From Thermoanaerobaculia bacterium (GTDB lineage Bacteria > Acidobacteriota > Thermoanaerobaculia > UBA5066): a DNA stretch of 64,000 nucleotides. A model generated the notes under the pieces. It did no database searches. It saw only the letters and a list, made by a program, of their open reading frames with translations, and had not been told where the DNA came from. Below, in pieces: positions 16,179 through 31,699 of this stretch. The stretch spans positions 57,090-121,089 of the forward strand of contig JBGASW010000006.1 in NCBI GenBank assembly GCA_044229475.1, given 5' to 3'. The translations under genes and the position numbers were made by a program. The number at the start of each line of letters is the position of its first letter. Within the stretch, counting starts at the first letter, position 1.

Positions 16179-17279
16179 TCACGCGTCCGAGAGGGCCTTT
16201 TCGTAGGCGTCCGTGACTTCGTCCCACCGGTAATGCTTCCGGGCCCGCCGGCGGGCGGCCTCCCCGGAGTGCCGGCGGAGCTCGGGGTCGGCGAGCAGGG
16301 CCTGGATCGCCCGGGTCAGCGTCTCCGGGCGCACGGCGTCGGCGTAAAGGGCTGCGGTCCCGGCCGTTTCACGGTTCTCGGCGGTGTCGTGGACGACCAG
16401 AGGCCGGCCGAAGCCCATGGCCTCGAGGAGCGCGGGATGCGTCCCGCCGACCTCGGTCGCGTGGACGTAGACGGCGGCGTTCGCGAGGAGCTCGCGGTAG
16501 CCCTCTCCGTACAGGGCGCCGGGCAGGAGGACGCGCGGGTCCCCCGCGGCCTCGGCCTTCACGGCCGCGACGAACGCGTCGGCGTACGGCGCCCCGCCGA
16601 GCATCACGAGGGGAGCCGCGCCCGGCACTCCGCGGTACGCGCGCACGACGGCGTCGGCGTTGTTCTCGGGCTCGAAGCGCGAGACGTAGAGGACGTAGCC
16701 GCCCGGTGAAAGGCCCAGGCCCCTGAGCGCCGCCGTGCCGGAGGGCTCGGCGAGGTCGGAGCCGTACGGGACGTAGAGCGAGTCCTGGCCGTACGTGTCG
16801 CGGTAGTACGCCTGGATGGCGCGCGCGTCCGTCACGAGCACGTCCGGCAGCACGCAGCTCAGGCGCTCGGACACGGCGTACGCGAGGCGGCCGGCGGCGT
16901 TCCACTTCCGGCGGTTGCGCTCGAGCCCGTCCACGTTCAGGACGACGCGCGTTCCGGCCCCGAGGAGGCGCGCGAAGCGGCACGCGAGCGCGTTGACGCC
17001 GTTGCACACGAGGACGGCGTCGTAGCCCTGCGCGGCGGCATGGAGGCCCGAGAGGGCCGTGTGGACGACGGTCTCGAAGTACTTGTGCCGCACCGTCGGC
17101 AGGAACACGACGCGGGCGCCGCGGTGGAGGGCGACCTCGCCGGCCGTCCCGCCGTGCCGCGCGTAGACGGTCACGTCGTGCCCGCGCGCGGCGAGGCGCG
17201 CGGAGAGCTCCTCGGCGAACGTCTCGAAGCCGCCGTAGGCGGCCGGAACGCCGCGCGTCCCGAGAATCGCGATCCTCAC
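16179..17279 (-). CDS. GT4 glycosyltransferase (DUF1972-like N-terminus)
   Basis: IAILGTRGVPAAYGGFETF, RFEPENN, GGTHPALLEAM; GTG overlaps the upstream stop. Confidence 0.88.
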   Translation of the reverse strand: MRIAILGTRGVPAAYGGFETFAEELSARLAARGHDVTVYARHGGTAGEVALHRGARVVFLPTVRHKYFETVVHTALSGLHAAAQGYDAVLVCNGVNALACRFARLLGAGTRVVLNVDGLERNRRKWNAAGRLAYAVSERLSCVLPDVLVTDARAIQAYYRDTYGQDSLYVPYGSDLAEPSGTAALRGLGLSPGGYVLYVSRFEPENNADAVVRAYRGVPGAAPLVMLGGAPYADAFVAAVKAEAAGDPRVLLPGALYGEGYRELLANAAVYVHATEVGGTHPALLEAMGFGRPLVVHDTAENRETAGTAALYADAVRPETLTRAIQALLADPELRRHSGEAARRRARKHYRWDEVTDAYEKALSDA

Positions 17280-18301
17280 GCCTCGATCCTCGCGCCGCGC
17301 GGGTCGTCCGTGAACCAGCGCGCGAGGTCCGCGTCGGACACCGTGCGGCGGCCCTGGATCTCGGCGCGCTTTTCGAGGAGGCGCGCGCGGTTCTCGGCGA
17401 GCCACCGGAGCGCCTCGAAGGACGTGCGCTCCACCGTCAGGCAGCCCCCGACGACGAGGGCGTCGCGGAGGAAGGTCCGGAAGAACGTCGCGCGGAGGTG
17501 CGCCTTCCCGGCGTTGTTGATCCGGAGGAGGAAGCGGTTCTTGACGGAGTGGAGGTTCGCGAGGGGGGACATTTCCCGGCGCCGCTCCGGGAGGTTGCGG
17601 CGCCGGTGCCACGCCACCGCGGAGGGGACGCAGCGCGCGGCCCAGCCCCGTCCACGCAGGCGCCACGCGAGGTCGACGTCCTCGCGGTAGACGAAGAAGT
17701 CGTCGTCGAAGAAGCCCGTGGAGATCCGCACGTCGGCGAGCGCCTCCGTCCGGAACAGCACGGCGCAGCCCGAGGCGCCGAAGATCTCGGCGGGCCGGTC
17801 GAACCTCCCGTCGTCGGGCTCGCCCGCGCCGACGTCGAAGTGGCGCCCGTTGGGCGTCATGCGGATTCCGACGCTGTCGATCACGGACGTCGGCGTGAGG
17901 TCGGGCCCCTCCGCCCGGAGGATCTTCCCGGTGAACGCCGCGACGCGGGCGTGCTCCGGACGCCCGGCCTCCGCGAGAAGCGTCGCGACGAAACCGGGCG
18001 CGAGGACGACGTCGGTGTTGAGGACGAGGACCCACGGAATCCCCCGCTCGACGGCCTTCGCGATCGACCGGTTGTGGCCGCCCGTGTACCCGAGGTTCTC
18101 GCGCGACGGGAAGACCTCGAGCGGAACGGGCGCGATCTTCTCGAACGCCGCGAACGTCGCGCGCGTCCCGTCCTCGGACGCATTGTCGACGGCGGAGACG
18201 GCGAGATCGCGGAACGACTGCGCGAAGAGCGAGGGGACGAGCCGCTCGGCGTCGCGGGACTCGTTGTGCGTCACGAGCGAGACGAGGACGCGCGCCGTCA
18301 T
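17276..18301 (-). CDS. GT2 glycosyltransferase
   Basis: VDNASEDG, NLGYTGG, LNTD, YREDVDLAWR; ATGA overlap with upstream gene. Confidence 0.88.
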   Translation of the reverse strand: MTARVLVSLVTHNESRDAERLVPSLFAQSFRDLAVSAVDNASEDGTRATFAAFEKIAPVPLEVFPSRENLGYTGGHNRSIAKAVERGIPWVLVLNTDVVLAPGFVATLLAEAGRPEHARVAAFTGKILRAEGPDLTPTSVIDSVGIRMTPNGRHFDVGAGEPDDGRFDRPAEIFGASGCAVLFRTEALADVRISTGFFDDDFFVYREDVDLAWRLRGRGWAARCVPSAVAWHRRRNLPERRREMSPLANLHSVKNRFLLRINNAGKAHLRATFFRTFLRDALVVGGCLTVERTSFEALRWLAENRARLLEKRAEIQGRRTVSDADLARWFTDDPRGARIEA

Positions 18302-19242
18302 GCGGCCCCCGGGAGAAGGGCGGAGCGCCAGCCGAGACCGAGGAGGCCGCGGATCACCCGGACCTGGGCGCGCGCACTCTCCGCGCGCGGGTGGTCGCCG
18401 CCGACGAAGGGAATGAGCACGAGCCTCAGGAGCGCGCCCGAGAACGTCGCGGCCCACGCGAGGGCGCGGAGAGGAAGGGACGCGTGCCGCGCGAGGTAAC
18501 GCCGCTCGTTGCGGACGTAGAGCGGCCGGAAGTCGCTCCACGCGAGGGAGTCCATCGCGACGCCGCCGACGTGCGTCGCGACGGCGGACGGGACGTAGCG
18601 GATGCGGTGGCGGCGCTCGAGGAGCTTGGCGCAGAGGTCCACGTCCTCGAACCACGCGGGAGCGAACGCCGGGTCGAAGCCGCCCACGGCTTCGAAGTCC
18701 GCGCGCCGCACGAGGAGGGCGGCGGCGGCCGGCTGCTCGACGTCGAAACCCTCGTTCCGCGGCCGGTCGAGGTACCGGTCGCGAAGCCGCCAGGGGTTCG
18801 AGGGAAAGAGACGGTCGAACAGGAACGCCTCGCGGACGATCGAGCCCGCGTGCGGGAGGCGCCGGAGCTGGAAGAGCTCCTGCCCGGCGCCCTCGAGGCG
18901 CGGCGCCACGGCTGCGACGCCCGGGTCGACGTCGAGGGCCTCGAGGAGAGCCGCGAGCGCGGAAGTGCCGTCGACGAGCGCCGCGTCCGGGTTCAGGAAG
19001 AAGATCGTCTCGGAGGGGCCGCCCTCCTTCGCCGCGAGGTTGCAGGCCGGGCCGAACCCGAGATTCGCTCCGGCCTCGACGACGCGCGCGCCCGCGGCCC
19101 GGGCGGCCTCCGCCGACCCGTCCGTGGACGCGTTGTCGACGACGACGACGGGCACGCCGGACGGGACGGAGCGGATCGCCGCCGGCAGGTGCGCGGCGGA
19201 GTTCCACGACACGATCGCGACGAGGACGCGGGGGGCGGTCAA
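18298..19242 (-). CDS. GT2 glycosyltransferase
   Basis: VVDNASTDGS, NLGFG, LNPD, WFEDVDLC; TTG start inferred. Confidence 0.85.
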   Translation of the reverse strand: MTAPRVLVAIVSWNSAAHLPAAIRSVPSGVPVVVVDNASTDGSAEAARAAGARVVEAGANLGFGPACNLAAKEGGPSETIFFLNPDAALVDGTSALAALLEALDVDPGVAAVAPRLEGAGQELFQLRRLPHAGSIVREAFLFDRLFPSNPWRLRDRYLDRPRNEGFDVEQPAAAALLVRRADFEAVGGFDPAFAPAWFEDVDLCAKLLERRHRIRYVPSAVATHVGGVAMDSLAWSDFRPLYVRNERRYLARHASLPLRALAWAATFSGALLRLVLIPFVGGDHPRAESARAQVRVIRGLLGLGWRSALLPGAA

Positions 19243-19314: not shown

Positions 19315-20601
<1,287 letters not shown>

Positions 20602-20605
20602 GGGG

Positions 20606-20956
20606 TCAAGCCCGCGCGCTGCGGATCTCGGCGAGGAGATCCGCGACACCTCGCTCCTCCGCGAACCGCTCGAGTGTTGCGTAGTCCAGCTTCTCGCCCT
20701 GCGCGGCGATGAGGGCGCGGACGTCGCGCACGTGCTTCGAGGATCCGCCCTCCTCGGCGGGCGGACAGTAGTACTCCGGGCCCGAGAACGCCTTTCGAAG
20801 CTCTCCTGGAGAGGTCACGCGCACCACGACGTCCACGTCCGCCGTGAAGCGCGGTTCGGCATAGAGCATGCTCGCGACCGAACCCGTAACCATGTACGTG
20901 AGTCCCGCCCGGTTCAGCGGCGCGACGAAGAGGTCGATCAGGTCGGCGTCAGGCAC
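20606..20956 (-). pseudogene. nucleotidyltransferase-family protein (toxin-like), apparently internally deleted
   Basis: YMVTGSVAS...EPRFTADVDVV N-terminus joined directly to EGGSSKHVRDV C-terminus; only 116 aa. Confidence 0.6.
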
Positions 20957-21176
20957 GCAGGAACTGCCGGCGCACTTCTTCGAGGACCTGCTCGTCGGTC
21001 CAGTCGGGATGCTCGGCGCGCAAACCGGCGCGCTTGACCTCGCGCGCCGTCCGCTGGAGCGCCTGTGCAACCGCCCAGCGCTCGTCCGGCGTCATCGCGG
21101 CGAAGCGCCGCATCTGCTCCGGATCGGGAGCGTCGTCGGGCAGCCGGTGTGTCGTCTCGGACGCGGCGGAAGCCAT
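20949..21176 (-). CDS. small antitoxin-like protein
   Basis: 75 aa, AMTPDER...GLRAEHPDWT; overlaps the NTase start by 8 nt. Confidence 0.65.
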   Translation of the reverse strand: MASAASETTHRLPDDAPDPEQMRRFAAMTPDERWAVAQALQRTAREVKRAGLRAEHPDWTDEQVLEEVRRQFLRA

Positions 21177-21321
21177 GAGTTCAGTCTAGCGCCCGGTGAG
21201 GAAGGGGCCGACGAGATATGTCCGATCGAACGTGAAGATCAGAACGGTGTGCGGCTGGCGGTCGGTGGGCATAGAGCACCTTGATCACTTGACGCCTCCG
21301 GGTGCCGACTCCAGTTTTACT

Positions 21322-21333
21322 TACCGGTCGGTA
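21322..21333. promoter_or_regulatory. putative TetR operator
   Basis: TACCG-GT-CGGTA inverted repeat 44 nt upstream of the TetR ATG; TTGACG at 21289-21294. Confidence 0.6.
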
Positions 21334-21377
21334 GTTCCTCTCGGGAACGAGCAGACCTGGGTCTGGAGGCCGTCAGG

Positions 21378-21998
21378 ATGTGCCCGGAAGTCACTGAACA
21401 CTCTGTAGAACAACGACTTCTGGACGCAGCCATCCAACTCTTCACGGAACGCGGGTACACCGCGACTTCCGTGCGGGAGCTCGTCGAGCGGGCCGGGGTG
21501 ACGAAGCCAGCCCTCTACTACCACTTCGCGAGCAAGGAGGACCTCTACCTCGCGATTCTGAGCGACCTCGCTCGCTACGCCGACGAGGTGATCGCGAGGA
21601 GCCGCGTGCGGAGCGGCCCGGTCCGGGAACGCCTGGAGAAGTTCCTCGTCGCGATGTTCGAGGCCTTCGAGGAGAAGAAGTCGGCCGTGCGCCTCATCAA
21701 CGCGGTCTTCTGGGGGCCCGCGCAGGGCGCTCCGCCGTTCGACTTCGCGACATTTCACAACAAGCTCCTCGTCGTCCTCAGGGAGATCGTCGACGAGGGG
21801 ATCGCCGCCGGCGAGCTCCGGGCCGCGAACCCCGCGGACATGACGCTCGCCCTCATGGGCGTTCTCTCGTTCACGATGGACCTCACGCTCGCGCGGCCGG
21901 AGCTCGGCGTCGGCAAGGACGGCCTCCGCCGTGCGCTCGACCTGCTCTTCGCGGGCCTGGCCGCGCCGGGCCCCGCCTTCAAGGAGACCCCCCGATGA
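21378..21998 (+). CDS. TetR/AcrR family regulator
   Basis: LF.ERGY.ATSVREL...AGVTKPALYYHFASKEDL helix-turn-helix. Confidence 0.93.
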   Translation: MCPEVTEHSVEQRLLDAAIQLFTERGYTATSVRELVERAGVTKPALYYHFASKEDLYLAILSDLARYADEVIARSRVRSGPVRERLEKFLVAMFEAFEEKKSAVRLINAVFWGPAQGAPPFDFATFHNKLLVVLREIVDEGIAAGELRAANPADMTLALMGVLSFTMDLTLARPELGVGKDGLRRALDLLFAGLAAPGPAFKETPR

Positions 21999-23101
21999 CG
22001 CGTTCGAACGCCGCCCTCCTCTCCAGTGTTCTCGCTCTCGCGGCCGCCGGCTGCAGCAAGCCCGTCGCGGGAAGAGCCGCTCCCGGGGCGGGCCGGCCGC
22101 CCGTCGCGGTCGAAACCGTGAAGGTCGCGACGGCCGATCTCGAGCAGACGGTCGACGTCGTCGGCACGCTCGCGGCGCGCAGCGAGGCCGACGTACGGAC
22201 GGAGTACAGCGGAACCGTCGCCGAGGTATACGTCACGCAGTGGGTGCGCGTGAAGGCCGGCACGCCCCTCGCGCGGCTCGACACGCGCGAGGCGGACGCG
22301 GCCGTGGCCGCCGCGCGTGCCGCCGCGCTCCAGGCCGAGGTGGCCGTGCAGCGTGCCGCACGGGAGCTGGAACGGAGCGCCAAGCTCAAGCAGGCGGGCC
22401 TCGCGACGCAGCAGGGGCTCGACGAGGCGAGGACGGCCGACGAGGCCGCGCGGGCGGGCGAAGCGGCCGCGAAGGCCCAGCTCGCGATGGCCGAGACGCG
22501 GAGGACGAAGGCCGTCCTCCGCGCTCCGATCGACGGCGTCGTCGCGACGCGGAACGTCAACGTCGGGGACTTCGTCGAGAACATGGGGAACCCTCCCCCG
22601 ATGTTCCGCATCGTCGACAACCGGCTTCTCGAGCTGACGGCGAGCGTGCCGTCGGCGCGGATGGCGGAGCTGAGGCCGGGCCAGCCGTTCGCCTTCTCGA
22701 GCGACGCGTTCCCGGGCCGGGAGTTCGCGGGCCGGGTCTCCTTCATCAACCCGGCGGCGGACGAGGCGAGCCGGACCGTGAAGGTGAAGACCGAGGTGCC
22801 GAACCCGGACGAATCGCTCAAGGCCGGGCTCTTCGTCAAGGGGCGGATCGTGACCGGCAGGAGGAGTTCGATCCTCGTCGTCCCCCGCTCGGCGCTCGTC
22901 TCCTGGGACACGGCGGCGCGCTCGGCGGGCGTTTTCGTCGTGGAGGGAGGCGCCGCGAAACGCCTCCTCGTCGAGACGGGCGCGGCGAGCGGCGACCGCG
23001 TGGAAATCGTGAAGGGCCTCGCCGCCGGTCAGGACGTCGTGACGCGGGGCGGCTTCAGCCTGCGCGACGGCGACCGCGTGCAGACCTCCGCGAAGGCGTG
23101 A
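21995..23101 (+). CDS. RND efflux periplasmic adaptor (MFP), lipoprotein
   Basis: Lipobox AAGC; RAPIDGVV lipoyl motif; alpha-hairpin. Confidence 0.92.
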   Translation: MTRSNAALLSSVLALAAAGCSKPVAGRAAPGAGRPPVAVETVKVATADLEQTVDVVGTLAARSEADVRTEYSGTVAEVYVTQWVRVKAGTPLARLDTREADAAVAAARAAALQAEVAVQRAARELERSAKLKQAGLATQQGLDEARTADEAARAGEAAAKAQLAMAETRRTKAVLRAPIDGVVATRNVNVGDFVENMGNPPPMFRIVDNRLLELTASVPSARMAELRPGQPFAFSSDAFPGREFAGRVSFINPAADEASRTVKVKTEVPNPDESLKAGLFVKGRIVTGRRSSILVVPRSALVSWDTAARSAGVFVVEGGAAKRLLVETGAASGDRVEIVKGLAAGQDVVTRGGFSLRDGDRVQTSAKA

Positions 23102-23104
23102 GCC

Positions 23105-26100
23105 ATGTTCCTGTCGAATCTCTCCATCAAGAAACCGGTCTTCGCGACCGTGCTCATGCTCGCCCTCGTGACGCTCGGCGTCTTTTCGTACCGGCGCCTC
23201 GCGATCGACATGTTCCCGGACGTCGAGATCCCGGTTCTCTCCATCTTCACGCGGTTCCCGGGCGCGTCGCCCGAGACGGTCGAGCGCGAGGTCACGAAGA
23301 AGCTCGAGCAGGCGGTCAACCCGATCTCGGGCGTCAAGCACGTCTTCTCGACCTCGCGCGAGGGGCTCTCGACGGTCATCATCGAGTTCAACCTCGAAGT
23401 GAAGATCAACGACGCGGCGCAGGACGCGCGCGCGAAGATCTCGGCGATCCGGAACGACCTCCCTCAGGGGATCGAAGAACCCGTCATCCAGAAGCTCGAC
23501 ATCGGCGGGATGGCGGTGGTGGCGCTCGCCGTCCGTTCCGACGCGATGACCCCGCGCGAGCTGACGACGCTGGTCGACCGCAAGGTCAAGCGCCGCCTCG
23601 AGAACCTCCCGGGCGTGGGCAAGGTCGACCTCGTGGGCGGGAGCAAGCGCGAGGTGACCGTCGACGTCGACCGGGCGCGGCTCGACGCTCTCGGCCTCGG
23701 CGTGGACGAAGTCGTCGCCGGGCTCTCCGGCGAGAACGTGAACACGCCCCTCGGCCGGCTCGACGGCGGCGGCCAGGAGCTGCCGGTGCGCGTCTCGGGC
23801 AAGCCGAAAGAGGTGCCGGGCTTCCGGTCCATGGTCGTCGCGACGCGCGGCGGCGTCGCCGTGACGCTCGGGGAGGTCGCCGACGTGAAGGACGGCGTCG
23901 AGGAGCGGCGCAAGCTGGCGCTCGTCAACGGCGTGCCGGCCGTCGCGCTCGACGTCTTCAAGCAGAGCAAGGCGAACACGGTCGGCGTCGTCGAAGCCGT
24001 CACGAAGGAGATCGAGCGCCTCCAGACCGAGCTGCCCCCGTCCGTCGAGATCCAGCTCGTCCGGGACGGCTCCGTGATGATCAAGGAGTCCGTGCACGAC
24101 GTCACGAACACGCTGATTCTCGGCGGCGTCCTCACCGTGCTCATCGTCTTCTGCTTCCTCAACTCGTGGCGGTCGACCGTCATCACGGGCCTCACGCTCC
24201 CGATCTCCGTCATCTCGTCGTTCATCGCGATGTACTTCCTCGGGATGACGCTCAACGTCATGACCCTGATGGCGCTGTCGCTCGCCATCGGCCTCCTGAT
24301 CGACGACGCGATCGTCGTCCGCGAGAACATCGTCCGGCACCTCGAGAAGGGGCAGGACCACATGTCGGCCGCCCGCGACGGCACGGCGGAGATCGGCCTC
24401 GCGGTCCTCGCGACGAGCCTGTCGATCATCGCGGTGTTCGTCCCCGTCGCCTTCATGAAGGGCATCATGGGCCGCTTCTTCTTCCAGTTCGGGATGACCG
24501 TCGCCTTCGCGGTGCTCGTCTCCCTCTTCGTCTCCTTCACGCTCGACCCGATGCTCTCCTCGCGCTGGGTGGACCCCGACGTCGAGCGGAAAGGGAAGCG
24601 CAGCGCGGTCGCGCGCGTCCTCGACCGCTTCAACGGCTGGTTCGACCGCACGGCCGACCGGTACCGGGCCCTCGTCGGCTGGGCCCTCGACCACCGCCGG
24701 ATCGTCCTCGGCCTCGCGGCGGCCGCGTTCTTCGGCGGGCTGCTCCTGTTCGGGACGCTCCAGAGCGAGTTCATGGTCAACGCGGACCAGGCAGAGTTCC
24801 AGATCCGGTTCAAGACGGCCCCGGACGCGTCGTTCGAGGAGACGCGCGGCCGGATGGGCGCCGTGCTCGCCGAGCTGAAGAAGATGCCCGAGGTGAAGCA
24901 CACATACGCCTCGATCGGCGCGGGCGAGACCGGCACCGTCCGCGACGCGCGTGTCTACGTCAAGCTCGTCGAGGCGAAGGAGCGGAAGAAGCACGCGACG
25001 GTCCTCGCCGCCGAGGCCCGCCGGCGGATCGCCCCGATCGCCGGGATCATTCCGTCGGTCGAGATCCAGACCGACGAGTTCGCCGAGAAGCCGATCATGG
25101 TGTCGATCCGCGGCGAGGAGATCCCGCTCCTCAAGAAATATGCCGCGGAGCTCAAGGACGCCGTGTACGGGATCCCCGGCATCGTCGACCTCGAGATGAC
25201 GCTCGAGCTCGACCTGCCCGAGTACCGGCTCGTCGTGGACCGAGAGCGCGCCTCGGATGCCGGCCTCTCCACGCCCGCGATCGCCCGGACGATCGGCGCC
25301 CTCGTCGGCGGGCAGGCCGTGACGACGTACGAGGACGAGGAGGGCGAGGCGGTCGACGTGAGGGTCCGCCTCCCGCTCCAGATGCGCCGCGACGTCTCGC
25401 AGATCGGCGACCTGAGGATCGCGGTCCCGGGCGGGAAGAAGGGGCACGCGCTCGTCCCCCTCTCGGAGCTCGTCCGGGCCGAGCGGGCGACGACGCCCTC
25501 GGAGATCTCGCGCCGCGACCTCTCGCGCGAGGTCCTCCTCACGGCGAACCTCGACGGGGTCCCGCTCGGAACGGCGGTCCAGAAGATCCGGGAGGCTTCC
25601 GCGAAGATCCCGATGGCTCCCGGCTACAAGATCTACTTTCCGGGCGAGGCCGAGCGGATGGAGGAGAGCTTCGGGTACATGGCCGAGGCGCTTCTCCTCG
25701 CGATCGTCTTCGTCTACCTCATCCTCGCGGCCCAGTTCGAGTCCTTCATCGAGCCGCTTTCCATCATGCTGTCGCTCCCGCTTTCGATCGTCGGGATGGC
25801 CGGGATGCTCGCGGCGACGGGCGACACCGTGAACATCATGTCGCTCATCGGGCTCATCCTCCTGATGGGCCTCGTCACGAAGAACGCGATCCTCCTCGTC
25901 GACTACACGAAGGTGCTCCGCGCGCGGGGGATGGACCGCCGGACCGCGCTCGTCACCGCGGGGAGGACGCGGCTTCGCCCGATCATGATGACGACGCTCG
26001 CCATGATCTTCGGAATGCTCCCGCTCGCGCTCGGCCTCGGGCAGGGGGCCGAGCTGCGGTCCCCGATGGGGCGGGCCGTCATCGGCGGCCTGATCACGTC

Positions 26101-27544
26101 GACGGTCCTCACGCTCCTCGTCGTCCCCGTCGTGTACACGCTCTTCGACGACTTCGCCACGTGGCTCCACCGGCGCTGGGCGAAGGCGAACGCCCAAGAG
26201 GCGGATGCGCACGTTGCGCCGGCGGCCGTGAAGACGGTGGTGTCGGCGCTGCTCACCGCCGCGCTGCTCGTCCCGGCCGGGAGCCTCGCCGCGGGCGCGG
26301 GGGAGACGACCGCGCCGGCGGCGGCCCGGGTCCTGACGCTCGCGGACGCCGTGGCGATCGCCATGGACAAGAACCGCGACGTCGAAAAGGCGCGCAGCTA
26401 CCAGGACTGGGTCCGCGGCAAGTACGTCGAGGAACGCGCCGCGGCCCTCCCGATCGTCTCGGCCGAGGCCGGCTGGGCGCGCTCGTGGGACGGGACGTTC
26501 GCGGCGCTCACGGGCGGCCTGTTTCCGTCGGGCCAGACGACGCAGGCCGCAGGGCTCACGCTGTCCCAGACGCTCTTCGCGTGGGGAAAGGTGGGTGCGG
26601 CCGTCCGCGCCGCCAAGCAGGGGATCGCGGCGGCGGACGATCAGCTCGAGCACTTCCGTCAGGCCGCCGTGCGCGACGTCACCGAGTCCTTCTATGACGT
26701 CCTGCTCGCGCGGCGGCTCGCGGAAATCTCGAAGGAGACACTGCGGTTGAGAGAGCAGCAGCTCACGCAGGCCGAGCAGCGACACGCGCTCGGCACGGCG
26801 ACGGACTACGACGTCCTCGCGGCGCGCGTCGCGCTCGACAACCAGAAACCCGAGGTGCTACGCACCGCGAACCTCGTCCTGATCGCCCTCGACCGCCTGA
26901 GGCTCGTCCTCGCGGAGGAGACCGCCGCGCTCGACGTGACCGGGACGCTCGAGTCCGGACCGGAGGAGATCCCGTCGTTCGACACCGCGGTCCGGACGGC
27001 CCTCGAGCGCCGGCCGGACGTGAGGGGGCTCGAGCACGGCGTCGGGGTCTACCGGGAATTCGTGAAGATCCGGAACGCGGACGACAAGCCCCGGCTGGAC
27101 CTGCGTGCGAACGCCGGTTGGACGTGGCTCGAGGCGGATCCGATCGCGGTCGACGGAAAGAAATGGGGAATCGGCGTCGCGTTCTCGTTCCCGTTCTTCG
27201 ACGGCCTCGCCACGCGCGGCAGGGTCCTCCAGGCGAAGAGCGACCTCACGCGCGCGGAGCTCGACCTCTCCGCGGCGCGCGACAGGATCAACGTCGAGGT
27301 CCGGACGGTCCTCGACCAGGCGAAGGTCGCCGGCGAGATCGTCGCCGCCCTCTCGGGAAACGTGGACCAGGCCCGGCGCTTTCTCGAGATGTCCGAGAAG
27401 GGGCAGGAGTTCGGCGTGAAGACGCGCCTCGAGGTCGACGACGCCCTCGTGAACGTGCGCCAGGCCGAGGGAAACCTCGCCCGGGCGAAGCGTGACTACC
27501 TCGTCGCGCTCACGAACCTCAGGTACGTGCAGGGAACGCTCTGA
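23105..27544 (+). CDS. AcrB-like RND permease fused to TolC-family outer membrane factor
   Basis: aa 1-~1025 RND (GLLIDDAIVV, KNAILLVD, RLRPIMMTT); from aa ~1042 a signal-like segment and an OMF domain (LTLADAVAIA..N, FPFFDG); no stop between them. Confidence 0.9.
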   Translation: MFLSNLSIKKPVFATVLMLALVTLGVFSYRRLAIDMFPDVEIPVLSIFTRFPGASPETVEREVTKKLEQAVNPISGVKHVFSTSREGLSTVIIEFNLEVKINDAAQDARAKISAIRNDLPQGIEEPVIQKLDIGGMAVVALAVRSDAMTPRELTTLVDRKVKRRLENLPGVGKVDLVGGSKREVTVDVDRARLDALGLGVDEVVAGLSGENVNTPLGRLDGGGQELPVRVSGKPKEVPGFRSMVVATRGGVAVTLGEVADVKDGVEERRKLALVNGVPAVALDVFKQSKANTVGVVEAVTKEIERLQTELPPSVEIQLVRDGSVMIKESVHDVTNTLILGGVLTVLIVFCFLNSWRSTVITGLTLPISVISSFIAMYFLGMTLNVMTLMALSLAIGLLIDDAIVVRENIVRHLEKGQDHMSAARDGTAEIGLAVLATSLSIIAVFVPVAFMKGIMGRFFFQFGMTVAFAVLVSLFVSFTLDPMLSSRWVDPDVERKGKRSAVARVLDRFNGWFDRTADRYRALVGWALDHRRIVLGLAAAAFFGGLLLFGTLQSEFMVNADQAEFQIRFKTAPDASFEETRGRMGAVLAELKKMPEVKHTYASIGAGETGTVRDARVYVKLVEAKERKKHATVLAAEARRRIAPIAGIIPSVEIQTDEFAEKPIMVSIRGEEIPLLKKYAAELKDAVYGIPGIVDLEMTLELDLPEYRLVVDRERASDAGLSTPAIARTIGALVGGQAVTTYEDEEGEAVDVRVRLPLQMRRDVSQIGDLRIAVPGGKKGHALVPLSELVRAERATTPSEISRRDLSREVLLTANLDGVPLGTAVQKIREASAKIPMAPGYKIYFPGEAERMEESFGYMAEALLLAIVFVYLILAAQFESFIEPLSIMLSLPLSIVGMAGMLAATGDTVNIMSLIGLILLMGLVTKNAILLVDYTKVLRARGMDRRTALVTAGRTRLRPIMMTTLAMIFGMLPLALGLGQGAELRSPMGRAVIGGLITSTVLTLLVVPVVYTLFDDFATWLHRRWAKANAQEADAHVAPAAVKTVVSALLTAALLVPAGSLAAGAGETTAPAAARVLTLADAVAIAMDKNRDVEKARSYQDWVRGKYVEERAAALPIVSAEAGWARSWDGTFAALTGGLFPSGQTTQAAGLTLSQTLFAWGKVGAAVRAAKQGIAAADDQLEHFRQAAVRDVTESFYDVLLARRLAEISKETLRLREQQLTQAEQRHALGTATDYDVLAARVALDNQKPEVLRTANLVLIALDRLRLVLAEETAALDVTGTLESGPEEIPSFDTAVRTALERRPDVRGLEHGVGVYREFVKIRNADDKPRLDLRANAGWTWLEADPIAVDGKKWGIGVAFSFPFFDGLATRGRVLQAKSDLTRAELDLSAARDRINVEVRTVLDQAKVAGEIVAALSGNVDQARRFLEMSEKGQEFGVKTRLEVDDALVNVRQAEGNLARAKRDYLVALTNLRYVQGTL

Positions 27545-27550
27545 GGGAGG

Positions 27551-27639
<89 letters not shown>

Positions 27640-27701
27640 GGAAACGCGCGGAAAGCCATTATCTCCTCTCCCTGCTAGACTTCGCGGCCCGGCGCCGCCA
27701 C

Positions 27702-27795
27702 GGACAGGTGGGTGAGTGGCTTAAACCAGCGGTTTGCTAAACCGCCGTAGGGCTTTAAAACCTTACCGGGGGTTCGAATCCCCCCCTGTCCGCCA
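27702..27795 (+). tRNA. tRNA-Ser (GCU)
   Basis: GGACAGG/CCTGTCC acceptor stem, GCGGT-TTGCTAA-ACCGC, long variable arm, GCCA end. Confidence 0.97.
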
Positions 27796-27883
27796 GCCCT
27801 TCGTCCCCGGCCGTGAAACTTCGCGGCCGGAAACCTCGTAACAGCGGCTGGAGTCAGCATTTGCACCGGAAGGGAGCCGTTCC

Positions 27884-29200
27884 ATGAGCACGCGGATCAA
27901 GGCGGCGATCGGAATCGCGGTCGTCGCGGTCCTGGCCGTCGTCGTCTGGGCGTCGGTCGCCCGCAAGGACAAGAACACCGTGCGGGTCACGACCGCGAAG
28001 GTCGGGAAGGTGCCGCTCGTCTCGACCGTGAGCTGCAACGGCCGCGTCCGCGCCAAGACGAAGGTCGACATCTCGTCGCAGGTGATGGGACAGATCGTGA
28101 CGCTGGCGGTGCGGGAAGGCGACCACGTCAAGAAGGGCGACCTCCTCCTCCAGATCGACAAGGCCCAGTACGACGCCGGCGCCCAGGCGACGCAGGCCGG
28201 CCTCGACGCCCTCTTCGCACAGCGCGAGTCCGACCGCGCGACGCGCGAGCAGGCCCAGCGCGACTACGCGCGCGAGCAGAAAAACTTCGATGCGAAGATC
28301 ACGTCCGAGCAGGCGCTCCAGAAGGCGAAGCTCTCGCTCGACGCGGCCGCCGCGAACGAGCGGGCCACCGAGCGGCGCATCGAGCAGGCGCGCGCGAACC
28401 TCATGGGAAACAAGGACAGCCTCCGGAAGACGACGCTCACGTCGCCGATCGACGGCGTCGTGACGGCGCGCCCGGTCGAGCAGGGCGAGAACGCGATCAT
28501 CGGGACGATGAACAACCCCGGCACCGTCCTCCTGACCGTTTCGGACATGTCGATCGTCGAGGGCGAGATGGAGGTCGACGAGACCGACATCCCGCACGTG
28601 AAGCTCGGCCAGAAGGCGACGCTCACCTTCGACGCGTACCCGGACAAGAAATACGAAGGCAAGGTCACGGAGATCGGCGGCAGCCCGATCACGAAGTCGG
28701 CCCTCGGCACGGACTCGTCCGCCGTGAACTTCAAGGTCAAGGTCCAGGTCACGAACCCGCCCGGAAACATCCGGCCCGGTTTCTCCGTGTCCGGCAAGAT
28801 CGAGACGGACCGCCGCGAGGCCGCCCTCGCGATCCCGATCCCGGCGCTCGTCGTCGCGGATCCGGCCTCGCTCGAGCGCCCAAAGCCCGGCAAGAAGGAC
28901 GACAAGGCGAAGCCGGCCGCCGGCGCGGCCGTCGCGGCGCCCGCGCCGGCGACCGCCGGCCCCGGCGAGAAGAAGAAGGACGTCGAGGGAGTCTTCGTCG
29001 TCTCGAAGGCGGGCACGGTCGAGTTCAAGAAGATCAAGACGGGCATCAGCGCCGATCTCCAGACCGAAGTCGTCGAGGGCCTCGCCGAGGGCGACGAGAT
29101 CGTCACGGGGCCGTTCAAGGCGCTGCGGCAGCTCAAGATCGGCGACAAGGTGAAGGTCGACAACTCCGCGCCCGCGGCCGACGCCGCGAAGAAATCCTGA
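27884..29200 (+). CDS. MacA-like efflux periplasmic adaptor
   Basis: N-terminal TM, VREGDHVKKGDLL, SPIDGVV, VDETDI. Confidence 0.9.
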   Translation: MSTRIKAAIGIAVVAVLAVVVWASVARKDKNTVRVTTAKVGKVPLVSTVSCNGRVRAKTKVDISSQVMGQIVTLAVREGDHVKKGDLLLQIDKAQYDAGAQATQAGLDALFAQRESDRATREQAQRDYAREQKNFDAKITSEQALQKAKLSLDAAAANERATERRIEQARANLMGNKDSLRKTTLTSPIDGVVTARPVEQGENAIIGTMNNPGTVLLTVSDMSIVEGEMEVDETDIPHVKLGQKATLTFDAYPDKKYEGKVTEIGGSPITKSALGTDSSAVNFKVKVQVTNPPGNIRPGFSVSGKIETDRREAALAIPIPALVVADPASLERPKPGKKDDKAKPAAGAAVAAPAPATAGPGEKKKDVEGVFVVSKAGTVEFKKIKTGISADLQTEVVEGLAEGDEIVTGPFKALRQLKIGDKVKVDNSAPAADAAKKS

Positions 29201-29207
29201 GGCTCCG

Positions 29208-30428
29208 ATGCTGTTCGGGGAGCTCCTGCGCGTCGCCTGGAAGGCGGTCACGGCGCAGAAGCTCCGATCGTTCCTGACGCTCCTCGGCGTCATCATCGGC
29301 GTCATGACCGTCATCGCCGTCGTGGCGGTCATCTCGGGGCTCAACAACTACGTCGCGACGAAGATCTTCTCCCTCTCGCCGGACGTCTACGCGGTCACGC
29401 GCTGGGGGATCATCACGTCGCGCGAGGAGTTTCTCGCCGCGCTCAAGCGCAAGCCGATCAACAAGTCCGAGGTCGAGCAGGTCATGCGCCTCGCGAAGAG
29501 TGCGGAGCGGATCGGGGCCTCCTCCGGGACGACGCGGCTCGCGCGCTACGAGGGCCGCAAGCTCTCGGACGTTCAGATCTCCGGCACGACCGCGAACATG
29601 GCGGAGATTCGGAACCTGGACCTCGAGTCGGGCCGGTTCTTCACGGAACTCGAGAACGAGCACCGCTCGTTCGTGGCCGTGATCGGCTCCGACGTCAAGG
29701 ACGAGCTCTTCCCGCGCCTCGACCCGCTCGGCCGCACGTTCACGCTGAACGGGATTCCGTTTCAGGTCATCGGCGTCCTCGTCAAGCAGGGCTCCGTGCT
29801 CGGCCAGAGCCAGGACACGATCGTCTACATCCCGCGCGAGACGCTCTGCAAAGCCTGGGGCTCGAACCGGAACATCAACATCCTCGTCCAGGCGAAGGGC
29901 GGCGTTCCGGGCGTGCCCGCGTCCATGGACGAGATGAGGGCGATCTTCCGCGCGCTGAGGCACACGGACCCGAAGGCCCCGGACCCGATTTCGTTCGTGA
30001 ACGCGGACGCGATCCAGGTCGTCTGGAAGGCGATCACGGCCGCCGCGTTCGCGCTCCTCGTCTTCATCAGCGGGATCTCGCTCGTCGTCGGCGCGATCGT
30101 GATCGCGAACATCATGCTCGTCTCGGTCATCGAGCGGACGAAGGAGATCGGGCTGAGGCTCGCGGTCGGAGCGCGCAAGCGCGACGTTCTCTTCCAGTTC
30201 CTTCTCGAGGCGGCGGTCCTCGCACTGGGCGGCGGGGTCCTCGGGGTGTTCTTCGGCTGGGTCATCGCGATCTGCGTGGACGCCTTCACGCCGCTCCCGA
30301 CGCTCGTGACGCCCGGCCTCGTCATCTCGGGCCTCGTTCTCGCCACGCTCACGGGCGTCATCGCGGGCGTCTTTCCGGCGATCAAGGCCTCGCGCCTGAC
30401 GCCGATCGAAGCCCTGAGGTTCGAATGA
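29208..30428 (+). CDS. MacB/FtsX-family ABC permease
   Basis: LRSFLTLLGVIIGV, NIMLVSVIERTKEIG, PIEALRFE. Confidence 0.92.
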   Translation: MLFGELLRVAWKAVTAQKLRSFLTLLGVIIGVMTVIAVVAVISGLNNYVATKIFSLSPDVYAVTRWGIITSREEFLAALKRKPINKSEVEQVMRLAKSAERIGASSGTTRLARYEGRKLSDVQISGTTANMAEIRNLDLESGRFFTELENEHRSFVAVIGSDVKDELFPRLDPLGRTFTLNGIPFQVIGVLVKQGSVLGQSQDTIVYIPRETLCKAWGSNRNINILVQAKGGVPGVPASMDEMRAIFRALRHTDPKAPDPISFVNADAIQVVWKAITAAAFALLVFISGISLVVGAIVIANIMLVSVIERTKEIGLRLAVGARKRDVLFQFLLEAAVLALGGGVLGVFFGWVIAICVDAFTPLPTLVTPGLVISGLVLATLTGVIAGVFPAIKASRLTPIEALRFE

Positions 30429-31699
30429 TCGCGCGCGTCCTCGACGGGTTCCGGCGCGTCCTCGCGGAGAACCTTCGGTTCGCGCTGATCGCGCTGCGCG
30501 CCCACAAGCTGCGCGCATTTCTCACGATGGTCGGCATCGTGATCGGCGTCTGGACCGTCATCGGAATGGTTTCGCTCGTGACGGGATTCGACCGCTCGCA
30601 GACCGAGGCTTTCTCGTCGTTCGGGACGACGCTCGTCCAGTTCCAGAAGTTCGAGCCGCGTTTCGGCCCCGGCCACCGCTCCGAGGAGGAGCGCAAAAGG
30701 CGCGACCTCACGATCGAGGACGCGCAGGCGCTCCTCGACCTGTGCCCCTCGATCCTCGCTGTGTCGCCCGAGCGGTACATGTGGACCCCGTCCAAGGTGA
30801 AGGCGAACGGCGTCGAGGCGAACTCCCCGCAGATCGGCGGCGTGAACCAGAGCTACGCGATCTGCAACAACTGGGAGATCAAGGACGGCCGCAACATCAC
30901 GGAGACGGACGTCCTCCACGCGACGGACGTCGCCGTCATCGGTCAGGACGTCATCGAGTCGCTCTTCAAGGGCAAGGACCCGCTCGGGCAGATCCTCACG
31001 ATCAACGGCAAGCGCGTGCAGGTCGTCGGGACGTTCGAGAAGAAGGGCTCGTCGGGCTTCGGCGGGCAGCCCGACAACATCGTCGTGATCCCGATCTCGA
31101 CGTTCGACCGCCATTTCCCGCAGACGAAGAACTCCCACGACGACACGATCCACATCGCGACGATTCCGCGCTCGCCCGAGCTCGTGGATCGCGTCATCGA
31201 GGAGGGCACAGCCGTCCTTCGGGCGCGGCGCAAGGTGCCGTTCAACGCCCCGAACGACTTCGCGATCTTCACCGCCGAGAAGATGCTCGCCCAGATGCAG
31301 GCCGTGACGAACGCGATCTCCGGCGTCATGGTCCTCATCGCGGCGATCGCGCTCCTCGTGGGCGGCGTCGGCGTCATGAACATCATGCTCGTCTCCGTCA
31401 CGGAGCGGACGAAGGAGATCGGCCTGAGGAAGTCCGTCGGCGCGCTCCGGAGGGACATCACTCTCCAGTTCCTCACGGAGGCGATGACGCTCACGGCCCT
31501 CGGGGGCGCCGTCGGCGTCCTCCTCGGCCTTCTGACGTCGCTCGTCGTCAAGAACGTCTCGAGCCTCAGGACGGAGACGCCGCTCTGGAGCATCCTCCTC
31601 GGCCTCGGGGTCTCGGTGTCGATCGGCCTCTTCTTCGGGATCTACCCTGCGATGAAAGCCGCGCGCCTGAATCCGATCGACGCCCTGCGCTACGAGTAG
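30425..31699 (+). CDS. MacB/FtsX-family ABC permease
   Basis: LRAFLTMVGIVIGV, MNIMLVSVTERTKEIG, PIDALRYE. Confidence 0.92.
   Translation: MIARVLDGFRRVLAENLRFALIALRAHKLRAFLTMVGIVIGVWTVIGMVSLVTGFDRSQTEAFSSFGTTLVQFQKFEPRFGPGHRSEEERKRRDLTIEDAQALLDLCPSILAVSPERYMWTPSKVKANGVEANSPQIGGVNQSYAICNNWEIKDGRNITETDVLHATDVAVIGQDVIESLFKGKDPLGQILTINGKRVQVVGTFEKKGSSGFGGQPDNIVVIPISTFDRHFPQTKNSHDDTIHIATIPRSPELVDRVIEEGTAVLRARRKVPFNAPNDFAIFTAEKMLAQMQAVTNAISGVMVLIAAIALLVGGVGVMNIMLVSVTERTKEIGLRKSVGALRRDITLQFLTEAMTLTALGGAVGVLLGLLTSLVVKNVSSLRTETPLWSILLGLGVSVSIGLFFGIYPAMKAARLNPIDALRYE

Follow-up and report, generated by a model that had tools for sequence, protein, structure and literature searches.

In a stretch of 64,000 nucleotides (nt) from the genome of a Thermoanaerobaculia bacterium of the phylum Acidobacteriota (assembly GCA_044229475.1, contig JBGASW010000006.1, positions 57,090 to 121,089 of the forward strand; hereafter the window, whose own numbering is used below), the inner membrane permease and the outer membrane channel of an RND-type efflux pump are encoded by one and the same gene. 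The open reading frame (ORF) at 23105..27544 on the forward strand starts with ATG and, from the ORF list and its translation, yields 1479 amino acids (aa; computed mass 160.4 kDa) with no internal stop, as a first reading of the DNA made without database searches (the sequence-only reading) had described. A complete RND permease of the MdtB/AcrB kind is followed by a linker laid out like a signal peptide, and then by an outer membrane factor (OMF) of the TolC type. This architecture is conserved among relatives, and the linker occupies the position of the real signal peptide in related operons where permease and channel have separate genes. What we infer is the cleavage, the topology and the exact site: with a probability of roughly 0.7, signal peptidase I cuts the chain into a 115 kDa pump with 13 helices and a free channel of 45.5 kDa.

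Permease and channel in a single frame

The permease part comprises residues 1-1028 (23105..26188, forward strand). The Pfam profile ACR_tran spans residues 4-1014 (E 8.8e-269, 894.8 bits against a cut-off of 28) and is itself covered from position 2 to 1020 of 1021. The best solved relative is MdtB (chain 9lyq_B, E 2.8e-151), on which residues 4-1028 align with positions 13-1036 of 1040; AdeB, CmeB, MexB and AcrB follow at 1e-97 to 1e-109, and 80 distinct PDB sequences match the permease at E up to 1e-50. Because the alignment to MdtB runs to 4 residues from the MdtB end, the permease, as judged from the alignment, falls at most a few residues short of the end usual in the family, and the full AcrB-like permease announced by the sequence-only reading is found again in both the profile span and the MdtB alignment. 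Permeases of the RND family have 12 helices, with both the N- and the C-terminus in the cytoplasm, and carry proton-relay residues in helices 4 and 10; candidates for these, recognized by eye in the translation, are the D-D of L-L-I-D-D-A and the K of V-T-K-N-A.

The predicted mature OMF corresponds to residues 1063-1479 (26291..27541, forward strand; 45.5 kDa). It holds two OEP stretches (Pfam E 5.1e-53, 180.1 bits against a cut-off of 22, the best at 1292-1474), both of which were recovered again in a profile search of the organism's own genome, and TolC (1ek9) matches it at 8.1e-13, with residues 20-405 of the query on 18-407 of the chain. Mature TolC begins at roughly the position of a conserved V-L-T-L motif found at 1076. 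Residues 986-1479 were modelled with AlphaFold2 from an alignment (A1) of 22 fused relatives; the model has a mean predicted confidence (pLDDT) of 81.4, above 85 over most of the OMF domain, and displays the TolC topology from R1075 onwards, with four long strands and with helices of two kinds, two of them long (about 68-70 residues) and four of half length (elements E132-142, E159-174, H177-244, H249-284, E345-359, E362-376, H382-451 and H456-491). The linker appears in this model as a low-confidence helix (1041-1054) and a coil (1055-1074) with block-mean pLDDT of 33-53. In Foldseek the model matches TolC chains at E 1.6e-23 to 3.8e-21 and TM 0.72-0.78, and TolC chains outscore those of OprM and CusC as matches to the OMF part. 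The domain assignment made from the letters alone is thereby confirmed for a complete TolC-type OMF, by the two OEP repeats, the alignment to 1ek9 and the predicted fold. Residues 1026-1075 contain no Cys, so this OMF is not a lipoprotein of the NodT/OprM type.

That an assembly error or a recent stop loss has joined two genes, the product being an artefact or a decaying gene, was considered and is rejected as extremely improbable. All sampled words of 25800-26700 occur in 14 DNA runs, which belong to 8 studies and are metagenomes of wastewater, sludge and soil, and contigs from two runs of different studies (X1 and X10) cover 901 bases with no difference and no gap, being identical across the junction. 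Since this DNA may itself come from one of the two runs, the support of these contigs is weaker than it appears, and conservation is the stronger argument against an artefact. No stop codon interrupts the linker of relatives: both halves lie in one frame in all 29 loci that cover the junction (L009-L038 minus L030, which lacks it). Both domains are full length, and the fused genes form a clade of 28 members, described below, whose OMF identity reaches as low as about 53%. Single damaged relatives, with a frameshift in the OMF (G356) or an internal TAA (G587), are what can be put on the side of a decaying gene.

The fusion is widespread. A search with residues 1000-1479 against proteins of 813-2589 aa, in which 8000 candidates were scored, returned at least 350 matches at E up to 1e-3. 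The 120 matches listed (882-1507 aa) all carry PF00873 and PF02321, that is, the ACR_tran+OEP architecture sought, with 89% to 46% identity over the OMF part. They stem from metagenome-assembled genomes (MAGs) of Acidobacteria, Thermoanaerobaculia and Holophagales, one being labelled Acidithiobacillales, and their names, where given, are 'efflux RND transporter permease subunit' or 'HAE1 family exporter'; the fused architecture is thus conserved and present in databases under a misleading name. A match at E up to 1e-20 is present in 97 of 401 genomes of the class and a strong one (E up to 7.1e-105) in 64, of which 53 have it in an open frame of 1438-1645 aa. The other 11 include separate OMF genes (G003, G013), a frameshifted gene (G356) and fused genes cut by contig ends, whose junctions could be read (G244, G304, G239, G319); the remaining four are G396, G324, G042 and G146. 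In G356 (loci L042/L024, G356:C25), it is the OMF part of the fused gene that carries the frameshift, at about residue 115 of the query.

A wider profile search with alignment A1 against 1.84 billion representatives gave 47,479 matches at E up to 1e-3, with E at or below 1e-30 for 1,510 of them; most of the 150 matches listed are OMFs of about 420-510 aa. Among them are fused proteins, namely P0125 (1491 aa, 563 bits) and, with only distant similarity (199-226 bits), P0192 (1511 aa), P0241 (1490 aa) and P0248. The last of these is a 938-aa fragment from a MAG labelled 'Deltaproteobacteria', and its cluster has a 1471-aa member. The ESM Atlas in addition holds ACR_tran+OEP clusters of about 1356-1466 aa with names of the CusA/CzcA type, whose commonest phylum is Bacteroidota or Planctomycetota (the phylum being recorded for one or two members). 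CusA/CzcA-OMF fusions in Bacteroidota had been mentioned in the sequence-only reading; the automatic names and Pfam shares of these clusters are in line with this. RND-OMF fusion probably arose more than once.

The linker and its counterpart in split operons

The seam begins with H-R-R-W (1022-1025), after which the translation gives a polar spacer of 18 residues (1026-1043; 26180..26233, forward strand), predicted to be cytoplasmic and ending in K1043 as the n-region. There follow an h-region of 13 hydrophobic residues (1044-1056; 26234..26272, forward strand), which, from a comparison of core lengths, is the predicted 13th membrane segment, and a c-region, P1057-A-G-S-L-A1062 (26273..26290, forward strand), for which homologue columns suggest a signal peptidase I site after A1062 or A1063. 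Past A1063, a stretch rich in Gly, Ala, Glu, Thr and Pro extends until R1075. The segment that the sequence-only reading had quoted at 26228-26293 is present, V1042 being the GTG at 26228 and A1063 ending at 26293.

The layout of this linker is conserved while its sequence varies. In 109 full-length homologues (representatives at 90% identity, hence not independent), the linker measures 26-71 aa with many insertions and deletions, and P1057 is its sole invariant residue in the 22-sequence alignment; the same column holds Pro in 104 of the 109. The column of K1043 is K or R in 78/109, and a K or R precedes the uncharged stretch by at most six residues in 102/109. Counted from the conserved Pro in the 104 homologues that have it, K or R is found at -14 in 46 and at -13 in 18, acidic residues are absent from -12 to -1, where basic ones reach at most 7 per position, and Leu predominates from -8 to -1. 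Downstream of the Pro, the residue is small at +1 in 90/104, at +5 in 67/104 and at +6 in 57/104; hydrophobic residues are found at +5, +6 and +7 in only 2, 1 and 3 sequences, and acidic ones climb from +5 to +8 (15, 19, 29 and 26 of 104). A (-3,-1) site exists in 109/109 homologues, as an exact A-x-A in 73, with Pro or Gly at -8 to -2 in 106 and an acidic residue within +1 to +8 in 94. The S1 and S3 pockets of signal peptidase I underlie the -3/-1 rule, according to the accessible part of one source (PMC9360617), and the accessible part of another has the cores of cleaved signals shorter than those of signal anchors (PMC2120157). The hydrophobic core of the linker has a median of 13 residues (interquartile range, IQR, 12-13), as against 15 (range 9-23) in 21 true signal peptides of split orthologues and 17 (IQR 15-18) in 1389 hydrophobic runs of the RND parts. 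The signal-peptide-like character claimed for the linker is thus upheld as regards the basic residue, the h-region and the small-x-small end: a positive n-region, an h-region of 13 residues and small residues at -3/-1 are all found, under rules that also fire on RND helices. This is not a classical signal peptide, since it lacks an N-terminal position (it starts at residue 1043 of 1479) and since the start codon is absent in most homologues, but it may work like one.

Orthologues with two separate genes are instructive in this respect. Within the class, G003, G013 and G018 have the same gene order with distinct RND (1032, 1031 and 1028 aa) and OMF genes (488, 515 and 421 aa), which overlap by 8, 8 and 4 nt, respectively. 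Outside the class, 30 strong matches came from a sample of 401 genomes of the phylum; of the 20 examined, 18 are split and two are fused (L056, from G642, and L061, from G582). In all 21 split OMFs, the N-terminal Met is followed by a basic stretch, a hydrophobic core and A-x-A, immediately ahead of the same L-T-L motif that follows the fused linker. Because both directly precede this motif, the fused linker stands, as read from the alignments, where split orthologues have their real N-terminal signal peptide. A Shine-Dalgarno (SD)-like motif and an ATGA overlap of stop and start codons are found in 12/21 split loci, and an offset of 5 nt in 3 more. The RND frame ends 45-63 residues past the start of helix 12 in 20/21 split loci. 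In the remaining one, L054 (G685:C29), it extends 107 residues past the helix 12 start, into what is the OMF's upstream frame in relatives; this may be an indel in the RND tail, and thus possibly an intermediate toward fusion. Another split operon, in G587 (L055, G587:C348), has an internal TAA in its OMF gene; this damage, like that of G356, may be due to sequencing errors or decay.

A maximum-likelihood tree of 52 OMF parts (quick IQ-TREE run, with two paralogues of the own genome as the outgroup and leaving out the frameshifted L024/L042, the truncated L030 and L055 with its internal stop) unites the 28 fused sequences from the class in a single clade (SH-aLRT 99) that lies among split forms, and the remaining two fused sequences fall outside it. 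The fused state needs three changes on the best tree, and well-supported branches force only one. A single old fusion in this clade is well supported by this tree, and independent fusions elsewhere are likely. The ancestor would have been an operon in which the channel's ATG overlapped the stop codon of the pump gene; a small change of frame could have joined the two genes, after which the start codon and the ribosome-binding site of the channel would have been lost.

Proposed release by signal peptidase I and its alternatives

In the proposed pathway, which is that of the sequence-only reading and the best supported of those considered, the 12-helix permease would insert in the inner membrane and leave its C-terminus in the cytoplasm. 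The segment formed by K1043, the 13 hydrophobic residues, P1057 and S-L-A would then enter the Sec translocon in the fashion of a signal peptide, its N-in/C-out orientation being expected because the C-terminus of RND permeases is cytoplasmic, and would carry the 417-residue TolC-like domain across the inner membrane. Signal peptidase I would cut after A1062 or A1063, and a cut after A1062 is computed to give products of 114.9 and 45.5 kDa. In the permease product, the signal segment would remain as a 13th membrane segment at the C-terminus, and the freed 45.5 kDa channel protomer would travel to the outer membrane. Permease, channel and the lipoprotein adaptor encoded upstream would make up an ordinary tripartite pump under the control of a TetR-family regulator. 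The enzyme is available in the own genome, which has two signal peptidase I genes (TIGR02227; 140.7 and 136.6 bits against a cut-off of 47).

Several points weigh against this proposal. A strict rule-based signal detector fired in the linker of only 57/109 homologues, and the same detector fired 277 times elsewhere (2.54 per protein), mostly on the helices near residues 530 and 960; as it fires on ordinary RND helices, such rules alone cannot separate the linker segment from a signal anchor. The likeness to a signal peptide is drawn from layout, core length and position, and not from a validated predictor. K or R is found within +1 to +5 of the site chosen by script in 18/109 homologues, which is unfavourable unless the true site lies a few residues further on. 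RNA-library contigs (X15, X16) flank the junction without any of them crossing 26183-26229, an observation that is uninformative either way. Finally, FbcH is the only bacterial precedent we can name for a polyprotein processed by signal peptidase, and literature searches for it were without a relevant result.

The detector's behaviour bears directly on the possibility that no cleavage takes place, in which case the linker would be a permanent 13th helix and the channel either part of a chain spanning two membranes or a tethered periplasmic domain with another role. RND helices 1 and 7 are themselves uncleaved signal-anchors ahead of large periplasmic domains, and the detector could not tell helix 7 from the linker. 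Geometry makes this unlikely. TolC is a 140 Å channel made of a 40 Å barrel and a 100 Å periplasmic part, and its first helix, hence the channel N-terminus, belongs to the equatorial belt, halfway up the latter, as described in the accessible part of one source (PMC8277102). The predicted site is separated from the conserved motif by 12 residues in the window protein and by 3-39 residues, with a median of 12, in the homologues, and a tether of median length would reach about 45 Å at most when extended. In an assembled pump, the channel N-terminus stands well over 100 Å above the inner membrane, so that an uncut chain would be too short to build a normal pump. Moreover, the hydrophobic core of 12-13 residues is below the length of RND helices, and the c-region pattern (Pro, small residues, then acidic ones) is conserved with constant spacing, for which a simple anchor would have no need. 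The three changes between fused and split states on the best tree, one of them forced, also point away from a tether, several changes being easiest to understand if both states give the same products. Cleavage might instead be carried out by another protease, or at a place other than the predicted site, which is only a prediction, several small-x-small positions lying between 1060 and 1066. We give this little credit: the conserved pattern is the one read by signal peptidase I under the -3/-1 rule (accessible part of PMC9360617), and the lipoprotein signal peptidase is excluded here because the linker is devoid of Cys, a residue that the linker has in only 13/109 homologues.

Proteolysis would be dispensable altogether if the channel were made by internal initiation at an in-frame start codon of the linker, two nested genes then sharing one frame, and the sequence-only reading had offered the GTG at 26228 as such a start. 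In-frame GTG codons do occur in the window at V1042, V1045 and V1046, an in-frame start with an SD-like motif lies upstream of the core in 5/29 loci (L023, L031, L032, L037 and L038), and one short RNA-library contig starts at 26229, although it is flanked by adapter and thus a mere fragment end. None of the three GTG codons of the window is preceded by an SD-like motif, which for the one at 26228 agrees with the original remark that no clear SD was visible. The column of V1042 holds Ala in 74/109 homologues and Val in 7, a Met lies ahead of the hydrophobic core in only 7/109, and 8/29 loci (L014, L015, L017, L018, L019, L021, L022 and L035) have no in-frame ATG, GTG or TTG between helix 12 and the OMF. 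The real starts of split orthologues, in contrast, combine an SD-like motif with an ATG at the stop codon in 15/21 loci, from which it appears that these organisms do use SD-led starts. A scan of 20500-28200 for promoter consensus sequences returned no site, a scan that is itself uninformative for this organism. Initiation at GTG 26228, and internal initiation in general, are consequently disfavoured as very improbable.

A benefit of the fusion in fixing a 1:1 ratio of the two products is plausible, but the gain would be small, given that translational coupling is present in the split orthologues too. More speculatively, and with a low probability in our view, release at the translocon where the pump has just been inserted might couple the assembly of the inner and outer membrane trimers in space and number, the 13th segment acting in cis, for instance as a built-in modulator of the permease resembling a small protein, or as a timer that holds back cleavage until the pump is folded.

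Genomic setting and comparison with known systems

The fusion gene is the last of a three-gene operon, whose composition (TetR, membrane fusion protein and fusion) had been proposed beforehand and agrees with Pfam matches of the flanking genes. The first gene (21378..21998, forward strand) encodes a TetR-family regulator (TetR_N 1.9e-21, TetR_C_24 8.4e-06), and the second (21995..23101, forward strand), which overlaps it by 4 nt and ends 3 nt ahead of the fusion gene, a membrane fusion protein, the periplasmic adaptor (HlyD_D23 1.4e-30, HlyD_3 1.7e-22). The adaptor is probably a lipoprotein, its N-terminus ending in A-A-G-C, a lipobox recognized by eye. A small inverted repeat, TACCG-GT-CGGTA at 21322-21333, lies 45 nt upstream of the TetR start and could be the operator of this repressor, although it is short enough to occur by chance. 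Terminator-like sites in 20500-28200 number 7, not clearly above shuffled sequences (mean 3.1, standard deviation 2.3).

The operon sits between serS, encoding seryl-tRNA synthetase (19315-20601, forward strand; Pfam), about 0.8 kb upstream of its first gene, and the genes of two tRNA substrates of that enzyme, tRNA-Ser(tga) (27552-27639, reverse strand), directly 3' of the fusion gene, and then tRNA-Ser(gct) (27702-27795, forward strand). Further downstream on the forward strand, a second efflux module comprises a HlyD-type adaptor (27884-29200) and two MacB_PCD+FtsX permeases (29208-30428 and 30425-31699), all assigned by Pfam. Neither an ABC ATPase nor a second OMF for these MacB-like genes was found with Pfam among the nine neighbouring ORFs tried, whose sole match is a glycosyltransferase on 17276-19207 (reverse strand). 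This module might make use of the channel freed from the fusion, and the 1:1 idea would then lose weight. The own genome (4.42 Mb in 10 contigs) has ten open frames with two OEP repeats, of which only the one described here is fused. The operon is accessory, as only 5/18 genomes of the window's own genus have it, and it may move between lineages; the OMFs of split operons outside the class (family f41) are 48-51% identical to that of the window, and those of fused genes in family f11 of its own class 45-53%.

In textbooks, tripartite efflux pumps are assembled from three proteins that are each made separately, and how the numbers and the location of their parts are matched is still discussed. 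If release by signal peptidase I is true, this enzyme can serve in bacteria for the maturation of a polyprotein, the C-terminus of a polytopic inner membrane protein can serve as the point from which an outer membrane barrel protein is exported, and RND permeases tolerate an extra membrane segment at their C-terminus. For annotation, genes named only 'efflux RND transporter permease subunit' leave the channel invisible, and such pumps would be scored as lacking one.

Compared with the canonical MdtABC-TolC, AcrAB-TolC and MexAB-OprM pumps, the three components are the same, with a permease closest to MdtB, a channel of the TolC fold and an adaptor of the lipoprotein type, here with a TetR regulator. 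The differences are that permease and channel form one reading frame, that the export signal of the channel is internal and has no start codon, and that the mature permease would have a 13th membrane segment and a periplasmic C-terminus. The split TetR-MFP-RND-OMF operons of other Acidobacteriota (e.g., L039, L040, L041 and L045; MFP, membrane fusion protein) are closer still: gene order is the same where the whole operon was read (L039-L041), their OMFs are 34-53% identical to that of the window (21 loci), and the L-T-L motif follows the signal peptide as it follows the linker here. In these, however, there are two genes, and that of the OMF has its own SD-like motif and an ATG overlapping the stop codon (ATGA in 12/21, an overlap of -5 in 3/21). 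RND-OMF fusions elsewhere, namely in Bacteroidota and Planctomycetota clusters, in the 'Deltaproteobacteria' MAG and in two further families of Acidobacteriota, share the ACR_tran+OEP architecture in about 1360-1510 aa. The junctions of P0125, P0192, P0241, P0248, L056 and L061 likewise show a basic cluster, about 12-16 hydrophobic residues, small-x-small and then acidic residues. The OMFs of other lineages are only distantly similar (199-226 bits for P0192, P0241 and P0248, versus 563 bits for P0125), and these are probably separate fusion events, of which the tree is no proof.

No paper on a natural RND-OMF fusion was found in literature searches or in the accessible parts of PMC8277102, PMC4827864, 10.1101/031039 and PMC12669032; 'RND-tolC', as it appears in the accessible part of the last of these, is the name of a locus and not a fusion. 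As for polyproteins in general, the gene described here holds two complete proteins in one ORF, parted by an internal predicted export signal. In the polyproteins of flaviviruses and pestiviruses, as far as the accessible parts of the sources describe them, an internal hydrophobic segment with a signal peptidase site likewise parts two proteins, as proposed here; these are viral genomes processed at the eukaryotic endoplasmic reticulum, whereas the present case is a cellular bacterial operon with parts in two membranes. Among bacteria, FbcH of Bradyrhizobium, the precursor of cytochromes b and c1, is one ORF for two membrane proteins with an internal signal cut by signal peptidase. Both products of FbcH stay at the inner membrane, while here one of them would go to the outer membrane. 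The pump itself is thus an ordinary one, and what is new is a single precursor for its inner and outer membrane parts, with an internal export signal that has no start codon.

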